DNA from: a virus
DNA: 31,376 nt
Direction: 5' to 3' (one strand)
Virus genome (UHGV): UHGV-0241516
The translations under genes and the position numbers were made by a program. The notes below the pieces were generated by a model. It was not told where the DNA came from and searched no databases. It was given only the letters and a program-made list of their open reading frames with translations. This document shows positions 18,713 through 29,182 of this stretch, one piece after another (the first letter of the stretch is position 1; each line of letters begins with the position of its first letter).

Positions 18713-19063
18713 TTACTTAATCCGTTCACGGGCCGTCTTCGCCTTATGACACGGCCAGCACAGACTCTGTAGGTTACTGTCTGCATCGGTGCCGCCATGC
18801 GCTTTAGGGATGATGTGGTCAACGGTTTTCGCCTCGCGCACCACACCGGCACGCAGGCACAACTGGCACAGGCCTTTGTCACGCTTCAGCACACGCGCGC
18901 GGATAACGTCCCACTTCGAACCATAACCGCGCTGATGACGGGACTGGCCAGACTTGTATTGCTTCCAGCCTTCGCTTTTGTGGCTTTCGCAGTAGCCTGA
19001 TGGGTCAGTCGTGGTATGGCGGCAGCCGCGAACGCGGCAGGCTTTTGGGGTTCGTGGAGGCAT
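18713..19063 (-). CDS. HNH endonuclease (terminase-associated)
   Basis: 116 aa. Cys pairs (CRVRGC…C) plus HIIPKAHGGTDADSNLQSLCWPCHKAKT are the HNH signature. Directly upstream of TerS as in HK97. Confidence 0.85.
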   Translation of the reverse strand: MPPRTPKACRVRGCRHTTTDPSGYCESHKSEGWKQYKSGQSRHQRGYGSKWDVIRARVLKRDKGLCQLCLRAGVVREAKTVDHIIPKAHGGTDADSNLQSLCWPCHKAKTARERIK

Positions 19064-19190: not shown

Positions 19191-19625
19191 TCATTTGAAT
19201 ACAAACTGTTCTGAAAGAATATTATGACAAATATATTTCGCCTGAATACTATTATCTCTCATTCTAATATATTCTTTGTGGGCAACAGATAAAGAACGAC
19301 AACCGCTGTTTACACGTGGGTATTTTTCCAACATATGTTCGCATATCAAAAAAGCATTATTAATAGCATTTAATTTATGGCTTAACTCTCGTAGCTCGGC
19401 CCTTTTTTCAATACGAACATTACGACTAAGAGATAAAGGTAGCTGTGATAATGCATTTGAATAATCAGCCACTGCCATTTTCAGAGCCATTTTGGCCTTC
19501 AGAGCCTCCTGTCGCCGCCAAACATTCATTGCCCAAAAACCTAATGTAACAGTTACAATTGAACCTAAAGCCGATACAGCTGACCACACAGTTCCCCAAG
19601 GCCAGTTAAGTAATGTATGCCACAT
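19191..19625 (-). CDS. Moron: membrane-anchored protein of unknown function in an AT-rich island
   Basis: ORF track start is GTG 19637; second ATG at 19625 has GGAGG 5 nt upstream. N-terminal hydrophobic helix, then a ~100-aa soluble domain. Local GC is visibly lower than the flanking phage genes. Confidence 0.6.
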   Translation of the reverse strand: MWHTLLNWPWGTVWSAVSALGSIVTVTLGFWAMNVWRRQEALKAKMALKMAVADYSNALSQLPLSLSRNVRIEKRAELRELSHKLNAINNAFLICEHMLEKYPRVNSGCRSLSVAHKEYIRMRDNSIQAKYICHNILSEQFVFK

Positions 19626-19993
19626 CATAACCTCCACTGAATGAAAAGGTTAGTTTATCGTAAGTGAACATCACTGGCACTATCTAAAGATTAGCTGCTC
19701 TACTAGTTGTACTCTCGATAATCTAAACAAAATGATACGTAATAAACCTGTTCATGACTAGCTCTACTAGACACATGTTTAATCATCTACAAACGATTTG
19801 TACAAACTTCCACTTTCATATTGGTCCAAAATGTTGGACTAATAGTTAATCACGATGCATATTTTATGTAAGCTGCTACATTACACTATAAAAACGCTGG
19901 CGTCTGAATTTAAGCCCATAAGTTTTATAAAATTATCATAATACACAGCTTTATTAGGCGCATTCGCACTGATAATGAAAAATATAACTCGAG

Positions 19994-20266
19994 CTATTTG
20001 TCTTTCGAATGCAAAATAGCGCGCCGTGATTCAATCTTTCTGATTCCAGTTTTATCAAAATTACATTGTCCCAAGGCTGACAATAGAGCAACATTCAACT
20101 CCAGACTGGTACCATACGTCAGCGGATTGGGTATAAACGGTACAGGAGTATCAGAAGTCAGGCTGGCTGGCAGTGGTGCCACCGGAGCGCTCACGTAAAC
20201 CGTTCGCGAATTTCCGCAACCGGTCAGCAGCGGCAGCAGGCACAGGACGTGAAGCACAATCATCAT
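19994..20266 (-). CDS. Rz1-like o-spanin lipoprotein (+1 frame, overlapping Rz 3' end)
   Basis: ATG ATG at 20266-20261. Signal peptide with lipobox LLTGC, Pro-rich mature part. Overlaps the last ~115 nt of Rz and extends past its stop. Confidence 0.65.
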   Translation of the reverse strand: MMIVLHVLCLLPLLTGCGNSRTVYVSAPVAPLPASLTSDTPVPFIPNPLTYGTSLELNVALLSALGQCNFDKTGIRKIESRRAILHSKDK

Positions 20267-20543
20267 CCGCAACAGCCACTTTGATATCTTCCTGGGTTCT
20301 CTGTGACTCCAGTGCGATCTGCTGTTTTGCATGCTGGTTAACCTCTATAACTGTATTGACGATTTGCAGTGATTGCAGGACGTTACGGGTAATGGCTGTT
20401 GCAGATTCAACATTTTGTACAGCCTCATCAGCACGTTTCTTTTCGTGCTGATATTTGCTGTAGTAGTGGTTGGCAGACCAGATGAAAGAACCGATGACAG
20501 TAAAGAAGAATGCAGCGATAACCAGCTTATAGCTCAACTTCAT
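20151..20543 (-). CDS. Rz-like i-spanin
   Basis: 130 aa with N-terminal TM helix and coiled-coil periplasmic domain. Immediately follows the endolysin. Confidence 0.8.
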   Translation of the reverse strand: MKLSYKLVIAAFFFTVIGSFIWSANHYYSKYQHEKKRADEAVQNVESATAITRNVLQSLQIVNTVIEVNQHAKQQIALESQRTQEDIKVAVADDDCASRPVPAAAADRLRKFANGLRERSGGTTASQPDF

Positions 20544-21003
20544 TTACCACCCCACCAGCCTCTTTAAACCGGGAAATCAGGTCACCGATTTTATGTTCAT
20601 ACTGACCGTAACCTGCACCAGGTAACGACGCCCAGATATTGCTGCAACGATCGATAGCCTGACGGATATCACCGCGATCAATCATCGGTAAAGCGCCACG
20701 CTCTTTAATCTGCTGCAATGCCACTGCGTCCTGGCTTTTGGGGGAGAAGTCTTTCAAACCAAGCTGTTTACGGTAAGCATCCCACCAGCGTGAAAGAAGC
20801 TGATAACGTCCGGCGGCTGTTGATTTGAGTTTGGGGTTTAACGTGACAAGTTTGCGAGGGTGATCAGAGTAATCAGTAAACAGTTCGCCGCCAACAATAA
20901 CATCATAACCGTGGTTACGTGTCGGTTGTCGCCCGTTATCCGTTCCTTCTGACCATGCAACCATATCCAGGAAAGCTTTACGCTGGGAATTTAGTACCTG
21001 CAT
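20527..21003 (-). CDS. R: Endolysin, lambda R-like lytic transglycosylase
   Basis: 158 aa, near-identical over most of its length to lambda R as recalled (…QRKAFLDM.AWSEGTDNGRQ.TRNHGYDVIVGGELFTDYSDHPRKLVTLNPKLKST…). Confidence 0.95.
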   Translation of the reverse strand: MQVLNSQRKAFLDMVAWSEGTDNGRQPTRNHGYDVIVGGELFTDYSDHPRKLVTLNPKLKSTAAGRYQLLSRWWDAYRKQLGLKDFSPKSQDAVALQQIKERGALPMIDRGDIRQAIDRCSNIWASLPGAGYGQYEHKIGDLISRFKEAGGVVNEVEL

Positions 21004-21006
21004 AAA

Positions 21007-21342
21007 TTACTCCTTCGAGCTACCAAACTTGTTACCGATTACTCTCATTGCAGCCCCACGAATAGCATCGACACCGATCAGCCCCACCCCACCACCAATG
21101 GCAACAGAAAGCGATTTAGGCCATCCGACATACTCAAGCGCGGATGCAAAGGTCAACGTCAGAGCGCCACATAGCAAAATCTCGAGCGTTTTTCGCTTCC
21201 AGCCACCACCACCGCCAAAATAGGCGATGCGCAAACCAGCCATAACAATCGACATAATCACTGCGCCCAGCGGCGTATCTCCACGCCACCAGCTCTGAAA
21301 CAACTCCAGCCAGTCCGGCCAGGTATTTGGGTTATGAGGCAT
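21007..21342 (-). CDS. Putative holin (three predicted TM segments)
   Basis: Chosen start ATG at 21342 has GAGGTGAGAG ~9 nt upstream. The ORF track's longer frame starts at 21438 and overlaps the methyltransferase. Directly upstream of the endolysin. Confidence 0.6.
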   Translation of the reverse strand: MPHNPNTWPDWLELFQSWWRGDTPLGAVIMSIVMAGLRIAYFGGGGGWKRKTLEILLCGALTLTFASALEYVGWPKSLSVAIGGGVGLIGVDAIRGAAMRVIGNKFGSSKE

Positions 21343-21418
21343 TTCGTCATCTCTCACCTCGCGATATTTGCGGGTGCTGTGTTGGAAATAAAAAGGCCAC
21401 GCAACGTGGCCACCAGAA

Positions 21419-22471
21419 TTATTTCCCCACCAGTTCACTTACCTCTTTCACCGTCTGATTAAACCGCTCTGACTCAAGTTCAACACCTAACGCCCGACGC
21501 CCCAGCGCCATTGCCGCTTTTATTGTGGAACCGGATCCCATAAAGAAATCAGCAACCAGATCGCCTTGTCGACTACTGGCACTGATTATTTGCCGGAGCA
21601 TATCCGCAGGCTTCTCACACGGATGTTTACCCGGGTAGAACTGAACGGGTTTATGCGTCCAGACGTCGGTATAAGGCACGGAAACTGATACGGAGAAATA
21701 GCGCCGGAGAGTTTTAAACTCATCCAGCAATTCATAATATTTGCGATTCAGTGAATCATAAGATGCCACCAGCTGGTGGTGTGGTTGTTCCAGTTGTTGT
21801 TCCTGAAACTTCTCTGCCGCTATACGGGAAAACAGTGCCTGCAACTTCCGGTAGTCAGCCTCATTCGGCAACTGCCACTGACTGGCACCAAACCAGTGGG
21901 AAACCATATTTTTCTTACCAGTGGCTTCGGCAATCTGTTTTGCCGTTATACCCAGTTCGGCACGAGCATCCCTGAAATACGATATCAGCGGTGCCATTAT
22001 GTGCTGTTTGAGTTCCCTTTCTTTTGCCGCATAGCCGTCACTTTTGCCGCGATATGGCCCCTGGTAATGTTCAGCAAACAGAACGCGCTCTGTGGCAGGA
22101 AAATATGCGCGCAGACTTTCTTTATTACACCCATTCCAACGTCCGGACGGCTTCGCCCAGATGATATGGTTAAGCACGTTGAAACGTTCACGCATCATGA
22201 TCTCAATATCAGATGCCAGGCGATGCCCACAGAACAGGTAAAGGCTTCCGGCAGGTTTCAACACCCGCCAGAACTGGGCCAGACAGTGGTCCAGCCACTT
22301 AAGGTAATCTTCGTCCCCTTTCCACTGATTGTCCCAGCCGTTGGGTTTCACCTTGAAGTAAGGCGGATCGGTAACAATCAGGTCAATGGAATCATCAGGC
22401 AGGGACTGAATAAAATGCAGGCAATCAGCGTTGATTAAATCAACACTGTTTATTTTTACAGTATTTTTCAT
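21419..22471 (-). CDS. DNA methyltransferase, beta-class (N6A or N4C), orphan
   Basis: 350 aa. DPPY (motif IV) near the N-terminus and FFMGSGST (motif I) near the C-terminus. No restriction partner seen. Confidence 0.8.
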   Translation of the reverse strand: MKNTVKINSVDLINADCLHFIQSLPDDSIDLIVTDPPYFKVKPNGWDNQWKGDEDYLKWLDHCLAQFWRVLKPAGSLYLFCGHRLASDIEIMMRERFNVLNHIIWAKPSGRWNGCNKESLRAYFPATERVLFAEHYQGPYRGKSDGYAAKERELKQHIMAPLISYFRDARAELGITAKQIAEATGKKNMVSHWFGASQWQLPNEADYRKLQALFSRIAAEKFQEQQLEQPHHQLVASYDSLNRKYYELLDEFKTLRRYFSVSVSVPYTDVWTHKPVQFYPGKHPCEKPADMLRQIISASSRQGDLVADFFMGSGSTIKAAMALGRRALGVELESERFNQTVKEVSELVGK

Positions 22472-22621
22472 GGATCAGTAAGCGTAACTCTGGTAGGCTC
22501 ACTCTGCTTTTGCGCTAAAGCAGTGGGCCGTGGTTCGCTTGTGACCAGTAGGCATGAGCGAATGGCTGGCAGGTGCTACCAACACCCACCAGCCGCCCAT
22601 TTTCACAGCAGGAAACCGCCA

Positions 22622-22849
22622 TTACTGGCAGCGTCTGAATTTATTCCCGTACCCGCCGTTATCCTTCGCCAGACCCGCCAGAACTAACTGAGTCAGTATT
22701 AACTGGCACCGGGCTTCGCTTACTCCGGTAGTTCTCGTCATCATGCGTGGCGTTACCCACTTGTCAGCAGGTAAGAAATGAAGGACTGCGGCGGCGGTTT
22801 CTGTCATATCTTGCTGTTTTAGCATGTCTTTTTCCCTTCTGGTTAACAT
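22622..22849 (-). CDS. Small hypothetical protein (75 aa), possible winged-helix
   Basis: ATG at 22849-22847 with weak RBS. Function unknown; could be spurious. Confidence 0.4.
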   Translation of the reverse strand: MLTRREKDMLKQQDMTETAAAVLHFLPADKWVTPRMMTRTTGVSEARCQLILTQLVLAGLAKDNGGYGNKFRRCQ

Positions 22850-22946
22850 GACATACCAATAACTCTTGTCTAAAAAGCCAGCAAGATAAAAAGTCAGTAT
22901 TCACGACCACCAGCGTGTTTACTGTGCTGCACCAAGTTTACAGGTA

Positions 22947-22972
22947 CAAAAAAACCGCTCAGCGGCGGGTTT
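22947..22972 (-). terminator. Terminator-like hairpin with T7 tract on the minus strand
   Basis: Minus strand reads AAACCCGCCGCTGAGCGG followed by TTTTTTT (plus A-run 22948-22954). Stem is short. Could be tR'-like. Confidence 0.35.
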
Positions 22973-23144
22973 AAGTTGTGTGGCGAAGTAACCACTCTTA
23001 ACACAGTAATCTAGAAAATGCGGACCGCGTTAGTGATTTTTATCTGTTTTTCCATTATTTTTTTGCCACACAGCTTAAAACGAAAAATAAAGCAGGCGTT
23101 GCCAAACCTCACGGTGACAGTTGGCTTAGAATGAGGACATATTT

Positions 23145-24164
23145 TTGGATAAGTTTGATGAGATTCATGTAGACATTGAATCTGAGCAGCAAGCCTTCGA
23201 TTTGCTTGAAAGCTATCTTGATGGTTATGGTTTACCTGACAGTTTAAGTTTCAACGGATGGCCAAACCTTACCATCAGATTAACCGGTGAAAAATTCAAC
23301 AGATCGCTAACACCTTCAGTTATGAAGGGATTTGTTGAAATGCAAGCTCAAATCAACAAATCATATGCCCTTGCCAAGTACGGTGTCCCTGACGTCCGCA
23401 AACTGACCAAAGAAGAACTTGATGCCCTAGAAATAGAAGTTACGGTAGAACAGGGTTCTTCAATAGTAGAAATCAACATTGATGGCTTTTTAACCAAACT
23501 CACACAGGAACTTGTTGGTAAAATGAACGCAACTGAGATCATGTTTACTGTTCTCGGCGCAGCAGTCATCTGGGGCGGAGTAACAGTATTTAAACGGTTC
23601 TTGGACAACCGTAAAGATATTCGCCTTGCAGAAATTGCTAAGGATGGAGAGAAAGAACATCTCCGGACTATGCAGATCATGAGCGAGCAAGAAACTAAAC
23701 GCCTGCGGGTTATTTCAGAAATGATTGCGGAAAAACCACTTCTCGATAACATGGACCGTATGTCGTATGACGCTAAAACCCAAATGGTCAAATCCTTTGT
23801 GCGTTCAGATAACGCTCAAATTGATGGCGTTACTATTGATTCTGAAATGGCGAAAGAGTTGGTTACGAATGCTCGTAGACGTTCATCAGAAATGAGGATT
23901 GATGGTATTTACCGAATTGAAGAAGTCAATAATACTGACCCAGAGAGTTTCAAAGTTAAGGTCCGACGCGTAGATACCGACCAACGTCTAACCTGCGTAG
24001 TTCAGGATGTTTTCCTTGATGAATCCGGAAACAAAGAAGCATTGCAGCGAGCTGAGTGGGAAAGAAAGCCTGTACATTTGAGCATTAACGCAAAACACGT
24101 CGATGGTGACATTAAGTCAGCAGTAATTCTCTATGTTCGAGATGTGGAACAAAAGCCCGAGTAA
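23145..24164 (+). CDS. Moron: 339-aa protein of unknown function with a central predicted TM helix, opposite strand to the prophage
   Basis: TTG start at 23145 with GAGGA 7 nt upstream; no in-frame ATG upstream after the stop at 23127-23129. Hydrophobic IMFTVLGAAVIWGGVTVF mid-protein. Lower GC than flanks. Ends 14 bp from the convergent Q stop. Confidence 0.7.
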   Translation: MDKFDEIHVDIESEQQAFDLLESYLDGYGLPDSLSFNGWPNLTIRLTGEKFNRSLTPSVMKGFVEMQAQINKSYALAKYGVPDVRKLTKEELDALEIEVTVEQGSSIVEINIDGFLTKLTQELVGKMNATEIMFTVLGAAVIWGGVTVFKRFLDNRKDIRLAEIAKDGEKEHLRTMQIMSEQETKRLRVISEMIAEKPLLDNMDRMSYDAKTQMVKSFVRSDNAQIDGVTIDSEMAKELVTNARRRSSEMRIDGIYRIEEVNNTDPESFKVKVRRVDTDQRLTCVVQDVFLDESGNKEALQRAEWERKPVHLSINAKHVDGDIKSAVILYVRDVEQKPE

Positions 24165-24178
24165 TCGGGCTTCAATAA

Positions 24179-24556
24179 TCAATCTTTAATTTCGGGGTCC
24201 ATCTCTAGACTAATTTCCAGCATCGATAGGCAGCCATCAATAAACCCCTCAGCCATCTGTATCTCAATGCGTATTAGTTTCTCATCCTTTTTACGAGCCT
24301 TGGCGAGCTTTCTTTTAGAGATACCGTATAGGTAATGGGCAACAAGAAGCGAATGTTCGTCCGGCCTTTTTTGCCTTAGACGAGCAAGACAACCTTCAAT
24401 AATTAATGCATCACTATCTGAACATGCCTGACGTGTTTTGCTTGTATAGGGAAGAAGCCCTTTAAACCCAGCAGCTATAGGAGAATAGTCTACTCCTGAA
24501 CTATCACTCGCCGCCCATGCTCCCCAACGATCCAGAACCATTTGAATATCACGCAT
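24179..24556 (-). CDS. Late-gene antiterminator Q (QuuD-like)
   Basis: Preferred ATG at 24556 with GGAGA 6 nt upstream. MRDIQMVLDRWGAWAA…IAAGFKGL… matches the QuuD-like Q N-terminus as recalled. Upstream of the lysis cassette. Confidence 0.7.
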   Translation of the reverse strand: MRDIQMVLDRWGAWAASDSSGVDYSPIAAGFKGLLPYTSKTRQACSDSDALIIEGCLARLRQKRPDEHSLLVAHYLYGISKRKLAKARKKDEKLIRIEIQMAEGFIDGCLSMLEISLEMDPEIKD

Positions 24557-24573
24557 CAACTTTCTCCACAAAA

Positions 24574-25569
24574 TCAGGCCAGCACGCCAATTGCCAGCGC
24601 ACGATCGATAAAACGAAATATCAGCTCCAACTGAGAGCCATACTTTTCTTCAAATACCACGGTATCCGCATGCAGCTCGTCGTGATGCTTTCTGCACAAA
24701 GGCAGCACGAAGAGGTCATGCGCTTTTGTACCCATTCCACCCTGACCGTGGCCTATCAGGTGGTGGGGATCATCTGCAGGCTTTCCACAACATGCACACG
24801 GCTGCGTCTTAACCCAGCGCGTGTACTTTTCGTTAACCCAGCGGCGACGTTTGGGACGTAACATAAAAGACTCCGGCGACTCCGGATCCACTTTCAGCGC
24901 CAGCACCTTTTTCGCTTTATCCTGGATGATGCTGGTGGCAGGAACCGAAGGCACAAGGTCACTTTCCCGGGTGACAGACGGCACAACAGGCTTCGGTAAT
25001 CTCAGTGCCTTACGGGCTGCGCTTTCCGGTAAGGCATCCGCCAGGTCATTACGAACCAGCCACCAGCACAGTTCCGGCATTGTCACAACGTGACTGTCAT
25101 CAAAACCGAGATCCCGACGCACGACAGACAACACCCAGCGGGCACAGTTATCCGTTGCCATTGATTCCAGCCGTTCCGTGAATTGATCGCGCAGCTGGTT
25201 ATCGCAGTGCCAGCACAGACGGATTGCGCCCGGAGCATGTCGCATTGTGGTCATGTTCTCGCTGTGCCAGCCGGAATGAGGCCACTGACAGCCTTTTTCA
25301 CGAAGTAACCAGCTTTCAAGACATTCCACGCCACCAGCACGACGGATCACTGCCTCATTACGGAACACGGCCCGAACGGCAGGATCATCCGCCAGTGGTT
25401 GTGATGCCGCCGGAACGGCACCACTGGCAAAAGATGAATAACGTTCCGGCTCAGGCTCCAGCAGGACACGCCCCTGCATAAACAGGGGCATCAGCTCTGA
25501 ACCAGGCCTGAATAATACGATCCCCATACGCGGGGCAATTTCAGGGGTCAGTAGTGCTCTCACGGTCAC
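24574..25569 (-). CDS. DUF968-like protein with C-terminal HNH-type motif
   Basis: 331 aa. C-terminus CACCGKP…HHLIGHGQGG…CRKHHDELH is HNH/zinc-finger-like. GTG start is uncertain. Confidence 0.6.
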   Translation of the reverse strand: MTVRALLTPEIAPRMGIVLFRPGSELMPLFMQGRVLLEPEPERYSSFASGAVPAASQPLADDPAVRAVFRNEAVIRRAGGVECLESWLLREKGCQWPHSGWHSENMTTMRHAPGAIRLCWHCDNQLRDQFTERLESMATDNCARWVLSVVRRDLGFDDSHVVTMPELCWWLVRNDLADALPESAARKALRLPKPVVPSVTRESDLVPSVPATSIIQDKAKKVLALKVDPESPESFMLRPKRRRWVNEKYTRWVKTQPCACCGKPADDPHHLIGHGQGGMGTKAHDLFVLPLCRKHHDELHADTVVFEEKYGSQLELIFRFIDRALAIGVLA

Positions 25570-25570
25570 C

Positions 25571-26368
25571 TCAATGAACGGTATCGAGCAGCTTTAACAG
25601 CTCAGGGAATCGGGATTCGAAGAAATGCGGCTGCGTCTCGCGCGGATTTGCAGGACTGGTAATGTTCTTGCCGAACATGCAGCCTTTCGCCGTCAGCGAC
25701 CAGAATTTTTTGATGTTGTTAATCGCGGTACGGCTGTATCGTTCGCGTTGTTCAACGATCCCCAGCTTCGCCATCTGGTGATATGCCTGATTAGCTGTCA
25801 GGCGGATACCATACTGCCTCAGCAGTGCACTCAGTGACAGCGTGGGGCGGCTTGAGCCATCAGGCGCGTCAGCAGGAGCATCAATGGCATAGCGCGGTGC
25901 CAGATTCGGTAAGCCAACAGCCTCCTGGAGTTTCTGACAGGCACCAAGCACTGAAGAGTTAGACAGGTTTAATTCCCGGCGCATAAAGTCCAGCAGAATC
26001 ACACCAGCCTGCATCTTGTCAGCAGCCTGTCCGGATAATTTTTCCGGTGCGCTGGTTACCATGTCGAAAGTACGGATCACCTTCAGATGGAATGACGGGC
26101 TGATCCACATTGCATAGGCATACACCAGTTCTTTGCAGACATACGTCCCCTGGTTATTTCCGCCACGAATAACGTTAACTGGCTCTATATTGACCGAGTT
26201 GCAAATCTGCAACTCGCTTATTAAACGTTCAGTTTGCTCATTGCGGAGCCAGAATGCAGGCTTATGCTTATCCAGAGAACCGGCAGCCCTGTGCAGATCG
26301 TTCAGGCTGTAACGTCCATAAGCATCACGACGAACTTCAATACCATCAATGACCATCAGATTATTCAT
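25571..26368 (-). CDS. KilA-N domain protein
   Basis: Preferred ATG at 26368 with GAGGAG 9 nt upstream. N-terminal MNNLMVIDGIEVRRDAYGRYSLNDLHRAAG… is KilA-N-like. Confidence 0.7.
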   Translation of the reverse strand: MNNLMVIDGIEVRRDAYGRYSLNDLHRAAGSLDKHKPAFWLRNEQTERLISELQICNSVNIEPVNVIRGGNNQGTYVCKELVYAYAMWISPSFHLKVIRTFDMVTSAPEKLSGQAADKMQAGVILLDFMRRELNLSNSSVLGACQKLQEAVGLPNLAPRYAIDAPADAPDGSSRPTLSLSALLRQYGIRLTANQAYHQMAKLGIVEQRERYSRTAINNIKKFWSLTAKGCMFGKNITSPANPRETQPHFFESRFPELLKLLDTVH

Positions 26369-26387
26369 ACTTCGTTTCTCCTCTTGA

Positions 26388-26777
26388 TCAGGCGGCTGCA
26401 CCCGCCGTTTTCTCGTACTTACTGATAGTGATCTCGACCTTCCCTTCCGGGATAACCGGTCCCCACTCCACCAGCATTCTTTTCACCTGGCTGTCGTCTT
26501 CCCACACACCCGCGTGGGTCAGGGCGTCAAACAGTGCCTTGTTATAGTTGTCCAGATCGCGGATCCGGTTATCCGGAGGAAACAACACGATCTCCACTGA
26601 AGCAGGTGCCGACGTTGGTTTTGGCAGACGACGTAACTGCTCAACTATTGCTGCACACGCCGCGCTCTGAAATTTTCGCCCCGCCGCGCTTATCAGGCTC
26701 TTACCAGCAAATGCCCCTTTGTTGGGGTGTCGCCAGTACGTGTTCACGCTGGGCGGGAAAGGAAGGATCAACTTCAT
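26388..26777 (-). CDS. rusA: RusA Holliday-junction resolvase
   Basis: 129 aa with RusA-like motifs (…PPSVNTYWRH…RDLDNYNKALFDALTHAGVWEDDSQV…). ATGA overlap with the upstream gene. Confidence 0.85.
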   Translation of the reverse strand: MKLILPFPPSVNTYWRHPNKGAFAGKSLISAAGRKFQSAACAAIVEQLRRLPKPTSAPASVEIVLFPPDNRIRDLDNYNKALFDALTHAGVWEDDSQVKRMLVEWGPVIPEGKVEITISKYEKTAGAAA

Positions 26778-27100
26778 ACTTTCAGGCCCCTCTCATGTAA
26801 CCAGTGGGCTGCACGCAGCCTGGCGTTTTCCTCACCGGCAAGCAGTGAGCGGATAATCCCGACCGCCTCGCTGTCGTCGTCCTTCACCGCGGTATGAAGC
26901 GTGATGCCCCGGGCCACGCCACGCTTTATCGTGATGACGCCTTTTTTCTCCAGTGCGCGAAGATGCTCCACCGCTGCATTCACTGAACGGTATCCCAGCA
27001 TGGTTGCCACCTCCTGATTGGTTGGCGGGAAGCCACGTTCTTTCTGATAAGAAATCAGCATATCCAGCACCTGCTGCTGGCATTGAGTTAACGTCGTCAT
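26774..27100 (-). CDS. LexA N-terminal DNA-binding-domain-like protein, no peptidase domain
   Basis: 108 aa. Residues ~6-65 parallel the LexA wHTH (TxxQQxVLDxI…GxPPTxxEVAxxLGYRSxNAAxEHLxALxKKGVIxI). Ends long before any S24 domain could fit. Confidence 0.6.
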   Translation of the reverse strand: MTTLTQCQQQVLDMLISYQKERGFPPTNQEVATMLGYRSVNAAVEHLRALEKKGVITIKRGVARGITLHTAVKDDDSEAVGIIRSLLAGEENARLRAAHWLHERGLKV

Positions 27101-27750
27101 GCCGCCATCTCCCTGACCAGTTTTTCTGCCTGCTGGCGAACCTGCGCCAGAAAGGCCTCACCACATGCCTCAAGTTCATCGCGCCCGATGTAGCTGATTG
27201 CCGGTCCCTTCCAGGTCTTGTCGAAAACAGCAATAGCACCAGCGAAGAAAGCGCCTGTCGGCACCTGCTTCTCATCCTTCGGGATAAACCAGGCAGGCAG
27301 TTCAAAACCAATACGCCCGCGAATAAAAGCAATATGATCTGCATCTTCCGGCCACCACACTTCGCTGGTGGCAGCTTTGATCAGGAAAACATAGCGCCCG
27401 CCTTTATCACGCATGGCACTGGCATGCTTCATGATGTAACGCATGCCGGTGATGTATTGCCCCTCATGCTGACTGGCGCGGCTGTATGGGGGATTACCAA
27501 AGGCAGCACCTTTAAGCTCCGCAAGGCGTTCTGACCAGTCATGCGCCAGCGCGTTGTCTTCCGCCGTGTAATACGCAGCACATTTGGCGTTATCACCGTC
27601 AGTGAACAGATCCAGAACAAACGGGCCAAACAGGGTGTTAATTCCCCAGAAAATGTTGTCCGGCGTGCGCCACTGATCGCCCACTTCCTTCAGTTCATGG
27701 GCTGGTTTGTTCCGCAGTTCCGCCAGCGCCTGGCAATATTTATTACTCAT
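27097..27750 (-). CDS. Phage Dam-like N6-adenine methyltransferase
   Basis: ATG at 27750 overlaps the upstream stop (TAATG). NPPY motif (GNPPYSRA). Confidence 0.8.
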   Translation of the reverse strand: MSNKYCQALAELRNKPAHELKEVGDQWRTPDNIFWGINTLFGPFVLDLFTDGDNAKCAAYYTAEDNALAHDWSERLAELKGAAFGNPPYSRASQHEGQYITGMRYIMKHASAMRDKGGRYVFLIKAATSEVWWPEDADHIAFIRGRIGFELPAWFIPKDEKQVPTGAFFAGAIAVFDKTWKGPAISYIGRDELEACGEAFLAQVRQQAEKLVREMAA

Positions 27751-28238
27751 TAAGCCCCCACGTAATTCCCTGAGAGATACCACTCTTCACCTGATGCAGC
27801 CTGCTTACTGCTTTTCCGTAAACACCGTTCACGACGCGCCAGAAAATTGTTTCGTTCTGGCTGGGAGTGGCTTTCACGGAATGCCGCCATCCACACGGTT
27901 GCAGCACGACGGTATAAGCCCCTGGACTCCAGTTCTTCAGCCTGGCGGGTCAGGCACAAAATCACCTGGGGATCGTTAGTGCCGACATAGAAATTGCGCA
28001 CAGGTCTGGTTTCTCGAACTGGTTGTGGTTCCGGTTCCTGCGCTCTCTCAGTCAGGCGCGGGAAATGTCTGCGTGTATCTCCTTCACAACGGTGAGCCAC
28101 ACGCCCACTCTGACGTAACTTGCTTGCTGACTGCAGAACGCGCTGCCGTGAGTAACCTGCAAAAGCATCCGCAATGTCTCCGGAAGTACATCCCGGATGG
28201 GCTTCAATGAATTTCTGAACTTCATTCAAAAGACTCAT
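27750..28238 (-). CDS. PerC-family-like transcriptional regulator with N-terminal wHTH-like region
   Basis: Preferred ATG at 28238. Motif AEELESRGLYRRAATVWMAAF resembles the PerC core (LE..GLWRRAA..W) as recalled. Confidence 0.5.
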   Translation of the reverse strand: MSLLNEVQKFIEAHPGCTSGDIADAFAGYSRQRVLQSASKLRQSGRVAHRCEGDTRRHFPRLTERAQEPEPQPVRETRPVRNFYVGTNDPQVILCLTRQAEELESRGLYRRAATVWMAAFRESHSQPERNNFLARRERCLRKSSKQAASGEEWYLSGNYVGA

Positions 28239-28240
28239 GA

Positions 28241-29182
28241 TCACCCCCTGAATCCTGCCGGGATCTGGCTGTAGTCCACGTTGTCGTAACTGGATTTGAA
28301 GTACGGGTCTTCGCGTTTTTCGGTGTACGTGCTAACGGACGGTGATAAGCGCAGGGAAAGCTCATCCCATTTTTCCCGCAACTTCGACGGGCTGAGCACG
28401 TTACGGCACCAGAACGGATCGCGGCTGACGCGGCTGTACATCTCGCAGATTTGTTTGTGAGTACGACCATCCTGCACACACATCAGGCGAATTTCGTTTG
28501 CCCAGGCTGTCCAGTTCGGTTCTTTGGGACGAACCACCTCGCCGTCACATTCGGCGGCTTGCTCGTACAGGGCGATGATTTTTTTCCAGAGCCACTGTGC
28601 GCAGGTCAAATCATCCTGCGTTCCCCACTGGCGCTTTTTAGGGCTGAATACAACCGCATCAGGATGGCGAGTTAAAAAATCCTGTTCATCCGTCTGCGTG
28701 TCCGGTTGCGAAGCGTCCGGACGAGAAGGTTTTTTATCTGACGGATCATGTTTTGATTTTACTGACGGATCCCCGCCAGATTCTGACGGGTGAAAACCCG
28801 CTTTTTTGCCAGATTTCGACGCATCAAATTTTGACGGGTCAGATTTTGATGCGTCAGATTTTGACGGGTCAGAATCTGACAGTTGAGAAAATGCCGCTGC
28901 CTGAAGCTTCGCAACGTTAAGCTGATAAACATTCGACGCATTGCGGTTACCCTGGCGACGCGCCTTACGCGTTAACCAGCCTTCTGCTTCCAGCCGTGCG
29001 ATAGCCGTTCTGACGGTACTCATTCCCGCGCCAATCTGGCGGGCAATGGTTTCAATTGATGGCCAGCACACACCTTCGTCATTACTGAAATCAGCCAGGC
29101 GGGCCATAATTGCCACGCTGGATAATTTCATGCCTGATGCAGCGCAACCATCCCATACATAGCCGGTTAATTTAGTGCTCAT
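28241..29182 (-). CDS. Replication initiator, lambda O-like, with ori iterons inside the gene
   Basis: 313 aa. N-terminal HTH-like region, then a linker of repeated SDxSK pentapeptides encoded by the iteron array, then a C-terminal domain. ATG at 29182-29180. Confidence 0.7.
   Translation of the reverse strand: MSTKLTGYVWDGCAASGMKLSSVAIMARLADFSNDEGVCWPSIETIARQIGAGMSTVRTAIARLEAEGWLTRKARRQGNRNASNVYQLNVAKLQAAAFSQLSDSDPSKSDASKSDPSKFDASKSGKKAGFHPSESGGDPSVKSKHDPSDKKPSRPDASQPDTQTDEQDFLTRHPDAVVFSPKKRQWGTQDDLTCAQWLWKKIIALYEQAAECDGEVVRPKEPNWTAWANEIRLMCVQDGRTHKQICEMYSRVSRDPFWCRNVLSPSKLREKWDELSLRLSPSVSTYTEKREDPYFKSSYDNVDYSQIPAGFRG
28735..28885. repeat. Iteron array (putative ori): 4 tight 15-bp tandem repeats plus 3-4 degenerate copies
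   Basis: Read directly: 15-bp units at 28811-28870 (AGATTTCGACGCATC / AAATTTTGACGGGTC / AGATTTTGATGCGTC / AGATTTTGACGGGTC), degenerate copies at 28735-28792 and 28871-28885. Confidence 0.75.

Follow-up and report, generated by a model that had tools for sequence, protein, structure and literature searches.

Why should a single prophage carry two DNA methyltransferase genes, and is either of them half of a restriction-modification system? The question is raised by UHGV-0241516, a stretch of viral DNA of 31,376 nucleotides (hereafter, the window), which is a lambdoid Escherichia coli prophage with a Mu-like contractile tail. A preliminary description, made from the sequence alone, placed methyltransferase genes of different classes at 21419-22471 and 27097-27750, and both are there at full length. 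We think it likely that they are independent orphan N6-adenine methyltransferases: one a late, motif-free enzyme serving anti-restriction, the other an early, Dam-type enzyme. The pair itself is already known. What alone look undescribed here are a structured RNA and a small open reading frame (ORF) that precede the late gene.

The late methyltransferase

The gene at 21419-22471 (minus strand) encodes a beta-class N6-adenine DNA methyltransferase of 350 amino acids (aa) that belongs to the M.EcoGI/M.EcoGII family. It matches PF01555 (N6_N4_Mtase) over residues 29-341 (E 8.5e-42). Its catalytic motifs are intact and stand in the beta-class order: DPPY (motif IV) at residue 35, a central region resembling a target recognition domain (TRD), and FMGSG (motif I) at residue 310. 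Compared over the full length with M.EcoGII, 286 of 349 residues are identical (82%), which leaves 63 differences. The sequence used for M.EcoGII was WP_000935520.1 (349 aa; locus L007:5809-6858) from the complete C227-11 genome. Since the M.EcoGII sequence given in Table S1 of PMC11551740 agrees with this gene at all positions but three, which are text-extraction artefacts, the C227-11 gene is M.EcoGII itself.

M.EcoGII methylates adenine whatever the surrounding sequence, with as much as 99% of dA modified in vitro, and it acts also on DNA and RNA in single-stranded form and on DNA:RNA hybrids, RNA being a much less efficient substrate (PMC5778455). The reconstructed ancestors of the M.EcoGI/M.EcoGII clade, Anc291 and SUPREM, are likewise active without a motif (PMC11551740). 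The window enzyme shares 89% of its residues with Anc291 and 67% with the deeper node, SUPREM; these two sequences were text-extracted from a PDF, so the figures may carry small errors. Because it is this close to M.EcoGII and to Anc291, both of which are motif-free, the late enzyme is most likely without a motif as well. It would be better annotated as a probable non-specific adenine methyltransferase than as a "site-specific" one. The ratio of nonsynonymous to synonymous substitution rates against M.EcoGII (dN/dS) is 0.087, and the gene is therefore under purifying selection. Of 5426 complete E. coli genomes, 1266 carry it, as do many Stx2 phages.

When the late gene would be expressed

The preliminary description held the gene to be the first of the lysis-proximal late region. 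The late position stands: the gene lies downstream of the antiterminator gene Q and of a terminator resembling tR', and it ends 76 bp before the holin gene, with those for endolysin and spanin next. It is not the first gene, however, but the second ORF, the one at 22622-22849 preceding it. The interval from Q to the methyltransferase was aligned with those of a Stx2a phage, which has the same type of Q, and of phage 720R4, which has a different one. About 55 nt before the terminator are conserved only with the Stx2a phage, where they start about 10 nt past the Q stop codon. Homology to 720R4 begins only at the terminator, whose stem shows compensatory changes. Such a pattern is expected of a PR'/qut segment followed by tR', and we accordingly mark a putative late promoter/qut segment at about 22975-23035 and a tR'-like intrinsic terminator, found by a terminator scan, at 22954-22966 (together 22954-23035, minus strand). 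The order of Q, terminator, small ORF, methyltransferase, and then either tRNA genes and stx2 or the holin gene, is common to the Stx2a phage, 720R4 and C227-11.

In lambdoid Stx phages, PR' is constitutive, but in lysogens its transcription stops at tR' until Q acts (PMC7547250). This accounts for the silence of M.EcoGI and M.EcoGII in lysogens. M.EcoGII, which is harmful when expressed constitutively, is silent in its lysogen, and its authors proposed that induction switches the enzyme on to defeat restriction (PMC5778455). A homologue of M.EcoGI in ST131 was likewise not expressed in the lysogen, as judged by reverse transcription PCR. Placed in a Q-dependent transcript behind a tR'-like terminator, the window gene would thus be silent in the lysogen and come on only after induction. 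The enzyme would then methylate adenines of the progeny DNA, largely or wholly regardless of sequence, shortly ahead of packaging and lysis. The resulting N6-methyladenine (m6A) could shield that DNA in the next host from the numerous restriction enzymes of types I, II and III that are blocked by it. Anti-restriction, which the preliminary description had thought plausible, is also the role proposed in the literature for this kind of enzyme (PMC5778455), and it stays the best supported one.

A structured RNA ahead of the late gene

In the alignment with the Stx2a phage and 720R4, conservation is higher in the 150 nt that separate the small ORF from the methyltransferase start than in the small ORF itself. 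These 150 nt contain a conserved structured RNA leader of about 140 nt (22472-22613, minus strand), directly 5′ of the methyltransferase start codon. The covariance model that we built for it, R1, matches the window at 22466-22613 with 163.6 bits, and the fold has a z-score of -3.0. Of its five helices, three (P1 to P3) meet in a three-way junction, which P1 closes, and two (P4 and P5) are hairpins that come next.

The evidence for the structure is comparative. One genome per species was scanned with the methyltransferase alignment, which gave 80 loci across Enterobacterales, including Escherichia, Salmonella, Citrobacter, Enterobacter, Klebsiella, Mixta, Erwinia, Providencia and Yersinia. RNAalifold, run on the raw MAFFT alignment, recovered a partial structure only, with the apex of P2 out of register. 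The structure was specified by hand and then tested by shuffles and by controls in which the pairing partners were slid. With 54 leaders aligned simply by MAFFT, 83% of the cells pair, against at most 49% with slid partners; two-sided changes occur in 17 pairs, against at most 10; and the covariation score is 0.132, against at most 0.090. The pairing and covariation values were reached by none of 500 shuffles. When the leaders are aligned by the covariance model, the values are 84.7% paired cells, 19 two-sided pairs and a score of 0.153. In Klebsiella, Yersinia, Ewingella and Lonsdalea, compensatory changes have replaced P2 in full. One pair in P3 is found as CG, AU, UA and UG, and in Mixta one P1 pair has turned from GC into AU. 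G-U pairs are frequent, which indicates an RNA read on the late-gene strand.

The model matches every locus once, always directly 5′ of the methyltransferase start codon; it finds nothing in VT2-Sakai, a phage without an M.EcoGII-type gene. The leader has no match in Rfam 15 (at E<=1 over 3 kb, or at E<=10 over 221 nt), a tRNA/tmRNA scan of it gave none, and no RNA is annotated there in the 40 listed of 60 matching phage records. Viral contigs were also searched by pattern, independently of the methyltransferase, and filtering by the model left 58 elements. In 53 of them the methyltransferase start codon keeps its register, and in another one the gene is truncated. The other four have the P1-P4 core only and lie downstream of other families of Q (PF03589, PF06323), ahead of a gene for a C5-cytosine methyltransferase or directly ahead of the holin gene. 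On one of these contigs, the element is about 135 nt past a strong terminator that follows a promoter-like sequence by Q. On IMGVR_UViG_2713896920_000002 (L095:3297-4470), a C5-cytosine methyltransferase (PF00145) stands behind the core, with holin and endolysin next. The position behind the leader thus seems to be a general slot for late methyltransferases. The view that the leader is specific to M.EcoGII-type genes had to be dropped, since these four contigs carry the core without such a gene; the core is therefore a late-operon leader element and not strictly a methyltransferase element.

What the leader does can be considered from its most constant parts. The start region of the methyltransferase, CUGAUC(U/C)AUG (22463-22480, minus strand), is near-invariant, contains GATC and is without a canonical Shine-Dalgarno sequence. 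The invariant loop of P3, G(G/A)UCAC, is complementary to the start region and mimics the 3′ end of 16S rRNA (GGAUCAC). One possible mechanism is that this loop pairs with UGAUC at the start site. The two segments being near-invariant, there is no covariation between them, and the pairing is offered as a hypothesis. Another possible mechanism is the binding of a ligand or a protein at the three-way junction. Control in cis of translation or stability is our leading guess. More broadly, we put forward tentatively, as somewhat less likely than not, that the leader represents an undescribed class of late-operon element of Enterobacterales lambdoid phages, with its core lying past the tR'-like terminator irrespective of the family of Q. 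Together with the small ORF, it may gate the translation or stability of the messages for the toxic methyltransferase and the late genes. If it does regulate a toxic hypermodifying enzyme or the late genes, it could help to explain how such an enzyme is kept in check. It would then also bear on Stx2 phages, where it lies upstream of stx2 on the same putative late transcript.

The small ORF (22622-22849, minus strand; 75 aa, or 67 aa from the RefSeq start, 22622-22825) is conserved and winged-helix-like (phrog_331, E 3e-26). Of 86 loci in various genera, 62 have a homologue directly ahead of the methyltransferase; some homologues match PF17782 (DprA_WH) or are named as TrmB-family proteins. In Xenorhabdus and Photorhabdus, the small ORF adjoins the methyltransferase and the leader is shortened. 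The product of the small ORF might regulate the methyltransferase or act as its partner; M.EcoGII is active in vitro without it. The M.EcoGII-type gene sits in a conserved, putatively regulatory module, small ORF plus leader RNA, which so far appears to be without annotation.

The early Dam-type methyltransferase

The second gene (27097-27750, minus strand) encodes a phage Dam-type N6-adenine methyltransferase of 217 aa; a longer version of the ORF, starting with GTG and reaching 27783, is not needed. The protein matches PF05869 (Dam) with E 1.2e-45 and 155.7 bits (cut-off 28.1) and the NCBI equivalog model TIGR01712 (phage_N6A_met) with 255.3 bits (cut-off 97.05). It has NPPY at residues 86-89 and a motif-I-like LDLFTD at residues 45-50. 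In an alignment with T1 Dam and VT2 Dam, D47, N86, P87, P88 and Y89 are invariant. Thus the catalytic motifs of both enzymes, which the preliminary description wished to see aligned with care, are whole. Its assignment of the NPPY enzyme to an early nin-like operon also proved sound: the gene overlaps the upstream yfdN/PerC gene at TAATG and the downstream ORF, which resembles a LexA DNA-binding domain (DBD), at ATGA, all within an operon of replication and nin-type genes. Because of these stop/start overlaps with both neighbors, it is translationally coupled inside the early operon.

T1 Dam targets GATC. M.EcoVT2Dam is entered as a GATC enzyme in a REBASE-based table, and PamA, a PF05869 enzyme from a Staphylococcus aureus prophage, makes DNA sensitive to DpnI (G-m6A-TC). 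As these characterized members of PF05869, the ones that we could trace, all act on GATC, the window enzyme is predicted to do the same, like the host Dam. The expectation in the preliminary description that the two enzymes have distinct target motifs is then probably wrong both ways, the late enzyme being likely motif-free and the early one likely to share its site with the host. In the literature, we found no experimental specificity for the TIGR01712 clade ancestral to K-12 yfdM, a clade that is widespread in E. coli. The window has 122 GATC sites where 163.5 are expected (ratio 0.75), which is within the range of other 4-mers and uninformative on specificity. Two identities were considered for the gene and rejected: M.EcoGV is of the MT-A70 family, and M.EcoGVI targets ATGCAT, the site of YhdJ-type enzymes. 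Neither of the window enzymes has a match to the MT-A70 domain, their matches being to PF01555 and PF05869.

During rapid replication, λ DNA is only partly methylated by the host Dam (PMC11037411). The phage enzyme, co-translated with replication and nin-type genes from the early rightward operon, may act during replication; it would supplement the limiting host Dam on fast-replicating phage DNA and make the phage independent of the dam status of the host.

The gene is present in 2120 of 5426 complete E. coli genomes (39%) and is 99% identical in product to genes of the cdtI phage and of Stx2a and Stx2c phages. In the M.EcoGII prophage of C227-11, a gene with 216 of 217 residues identical lies 4.6 kb upstream of M.EcoGII in the same gene order. 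The K-12 gene yfdM (in CPS-53) matches only bases 388-654 of the window gene (27097-27363; the 3′ 41%), at 97% identity. It is a truncated 3′ remnant without NPPY, of which the window gene is the full-length form. Overproduction of YfdM is nevertheless reported in a preprint to activate phage SW1, whose propagation YfdM is said to promote (bioRxiv 413146). We also note that in several phages, virulent as well as temperate (Salmonella 59-kb phages, Escherichia phage Eeyore), homologues bear the annotation of a PAPS-reductase-like protein or are fused to one. Among PHROGs, the best match of the window enzyme is phrog_33262, at positions 283-492 of 495.

Two orphans that assort independently

The preliminary description regarded the enzymes as unrelated in class and as lacking a restriction partner, and our scans agree. 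PF01555 and PF05869/TIGR01712 are different families, and scans with Pfam and PADLOC found no restriction endonuclease among the neighbors of either gene. Neighbors vary between phages with the same methyltransferases, and the adjacent, co-inherited endonuclease of a type II restriction-modification system is not seen. The nuclease-like matches in the window are only two, a DUF968/HNHc_6 protein of the nin region and an HNH endonuclease (18713-19063, minus strand). The latter gene adjoins that for a P27-family small terminase subunit, and its product has weak matches to restriction endonuclease-like PADLOC models (E ~1e-5); it is the usual packaging-associated HNH and not a restriction partner. 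The gene at 23145-24164 was considered as a hidden partner and discarded: it has no PADLOC or Pfam match, its homologues are "hypothetical", and it is missing or replaced in other phages with the methyltransferase.

Nor are the two methyltransferases linked. The Dam-type gene is on only 2 of the 14 viral contigs that have the late enzyme together with 6.5 kb or more of sequence upstream. The two genes assort independently; they belong to separate mosaic modules and do not form a functional unit.

Weighing the alternatives

The late enzyme could instead be a sequence-specific orphan with a motif of its own. Enzymes of PF01555 are mostly site-specific, as are its nearest solved relatives, M.RsrI, M.MboIIA and CcrM, and many of its 63 differences from M.EcoGII fall in the central TRD-like region, so some sequence preference is possible. 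We consider an own motif quite improbable all the same: the enzyme lies inside the M.EcoGI/M.EcoGII clade by its identities to M.EcoGII and Anc291, even SUPREM is still motif-free, and the closest confirmed site-specific relative that is named, M.PflMI, is outside the Anc291 and SUPREM nodes (PMC11551740). Homologues at about 93% similarity are, moreover, entered as "nonspecific" in REBASE-based tables. Could RNA, messenger or ribosomal, be the relevant substrate of one or both enzymes, the purpose being to tune translation or induction and not to evade restriction? M.EcoGII does methylate single-stranded RNA and DNA:RNA hybrids in vitro (PMC5778455), a conserved small ORF adjoins the M.EcoGII-type gene, and M.EcoPA8orf6770P, an MT-A70 enzyme of an Stx prophage that went under the name of a DNA adenine methyltransferase, proved to methylate 16S rRNA in complex with a small partner protein (PMC10810198). 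But M.EcoGII alone methylates nearly all dA of duplex DNA and RNA far less efficiently, and the rRNA enzyme is from a different family; a primary role on RNA is thus improbable in our estimate. An anti-restriction role has its own difficulties. Heavily m6A-modified DNA is a substrate of m6A-dependent type IV enzymes, so that the protection would not be unconditional (PMC11037411). Also weighing against the simple scheme is a terminator-like, GC-rich hairpin followed by a T-run (21395-21411, minus strand; a 7-bp stem with 6 GC pairs, then TTTTTATTTC), found by the terminator scan in the 76-bp gap between the methyltransferase stop and the holin start, that is, within what is taken to be an unbroken late operon. 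The hairpin and the structured leader suggest regulation beyond simple read-through by Q.

The prediction of GATC for the Dam-type enzyme is weak, given that its identity is only 29% with VT2-Sakai Dam and 23% with T1 Dam and that it has two clade-specific insertions. It might have another or a relaxed specificity, or a role in packaging or in the control of replication. No solved structure is detectable for it by sequence search, its relatives include the fusions to a PAPS-reductase-like domain (phrog_33262), and the YfdM remnant is reported to favor the propagation of SW1. On the other side, the enzyme passes the equivalog model by a wide margin, and PamA, distant as it is, still yields DpnI-sensitive DNA. 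We regard a departure from GATC as unlikely, though as a possibility to be kept in mind. Finally, the prophage might be decaying and both genes inert cargo in it. Lysogens do not express M.EcoGI or M.EcoGII, and K-12 keeps only a fragment of the Dam-type gene. Both ORFs of the window are, in contrast, full-length with intact catalytic motifs, the dN/dS of the late gene is low, the entire morphogenesis, lysis and immunity gene set is present, and a near-identical phage has been isolated. Decay is accordingly very improbable. We retain, as likely, two independent orphan enzymes, the late one opposing restriction and the early one of the Dam type, the timing, targets and role of which we infer largely from gene order and from relatives.

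The prophage and its other genes

The prophage is an ordinary mosaic one, apparently complete. Its genes are on the minus strand from about 1 to 30100, with the gene at 23145-24164 on the plus strand. The chromosome of E. coli FORC_081 is 100% identical across 21419-27750, and its RefSeq annotation, which names the two methyltransferases "DNA-methyltransferase" and "phage N-6-adenine-methyltransferase" at the same coordinates, supplies the gene order. Early genes run from a cI-like repressor through Cro, YmfL, a replication protein and yfdN/PerC to the Dam-type gene, and onward through the LexA-DBD-like gene, RusA, KilA-N and DUF968 to antiterminator Q. Past Q come the opposite-strand gene, the small ORF, the late methyltransferase, holin, endolysin and spanin, and then HNH, a P27-type terminase, an HK97-type head and the Mu-like contractile tail.

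Among these, Q is at 24179-24571 (RefSeq, 24179-24559; minus strand; PF06530, E 2.1e-52). The lysis cassette (20151-21342, minus strand), defined by domain scan and RefSeq, consists of holin (21007-21342), endolysin (20527-21003) and spanin (20151-20543). By the same means, the neighbors of the Dam-type gene are yfdN/PerC-like (27750-28244) and LexA-DBD-like (26774-27100), both on the minus strand. The opposite-strand gene (23145-24164; 339 aa; phrog_6191) is low in G+C (0.41) and lies between Q and the late promoter region. Its product has a predicted central hydrophobic helix and homologues across Gammaproteobacteria, every one named "hypothetical". The gene is neither in 720R4 nor in the Stx2a phage; at its site, C227-11 has two other ORFs and strain CUPF06 a KAP NTPase. 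The site looks like a variable hotspot for cargo or defense genes, and the gene like cargo there, not a partner of the methyltransferases. Another ORF, of 148 aa (19191-19637, minus strand; phrog_6169), lies between the spanin genes and HNH/terminase in the kilobase of lowest G+C in the window (0.37). It has no PADLOC match and is probably further cargo.

The combination of methyltransferases is not new, as the preliminary description had implied it to be. Coverage of the full 6.3-kb segment reaches 80% or more in 96 E. coli genomes, and the pair is found also in the M.EcoGII prophage of E. coli O104:H4 C227-11 and in the published phages cdtI, Stx2a_1447 and vB_EcoM-720R4. The last is an isolated phage whose enzymes are nearly identical to those of the window (98.9% and 100% aa identity), which shows that this type of phage is viable. 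Orphan methyltransferases of the M.EcoGII and Dam families from E. coli prophages are already catalogued in REBASE-based methylome papers, and the M.EcoGII family is already a commercial reagent.

Comparison with known systems

The closest precedent is M.EcoGII of C227-11, with M.EcoGI (PMC5778455): the late enzyme is of the same family, of nearly the same length (350 vs. 349 aa) and has the same order of motifs. The locus offers the same slot as well, with Q, terminator, small ORF, structured leader and methyltransferase in succession and a Dam-type gene upstream. It differs in that tRNA genes and an esterase gene follow M.EcoGII, whereas the holin gene follows directly in the window, in the opposite-strand insert between Q and the late promoter, and in the amino acid differences already counted.

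Other phage-borne enzymes modify adenine broadly. Hia5, Hin1523 and Nma1821, which are alpha-class non-specific adenine methyltransferases, and Mom of phage Mu are late, phage-borne functions of anti-restriction that are toxic if mis-expressed and tightly controlled. The late enzyme would share with them a broad modification of adenine from a phage gene, but it is unrelated in class or chemistry, and their genes are at the mom position of Mu-like phages and not downstream of Q.

For the early enzyme, the counterparts are T1 Dam, M.EcoVT2Dam and PamA of the S. aureus phage mPhi11, which are likewise small orphans of PF05869 with NPPY. VT2-Sakai Dam is also encoded in the early or nin region; the window enzyme is about 40 aa longer than VT2 Dam, owing to two internal insertions and a C-terminal extension. 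M.EcoGV/M.EcoPA8orf6770P (PMC10810198) resembles the present case in being a "Dam homologue" from a prophage of Shiga toxin-producing E. coli with a small adjacent partner gene. It is, however, an MT-A70 enzyme encoded near the left prophage end and does not correspond to the Dam-type gene of the window.

The leader RNA, lastly, invites comparison with the late-leader RNAs of lambdoid phages, among them the put RNA of HK022. The 6S RNA of λ and StxS, the PR'-tR' transcript of Stx phages (PMC7547250), come, as the leader does, from the 5′ region of the late operon downstream of Q. The leader described here is set apart from all three by lying past the tR'-like terminator, not before it, by having no sequence similarity to them, and by its architecture of a three-way junction followed by two hairpins.

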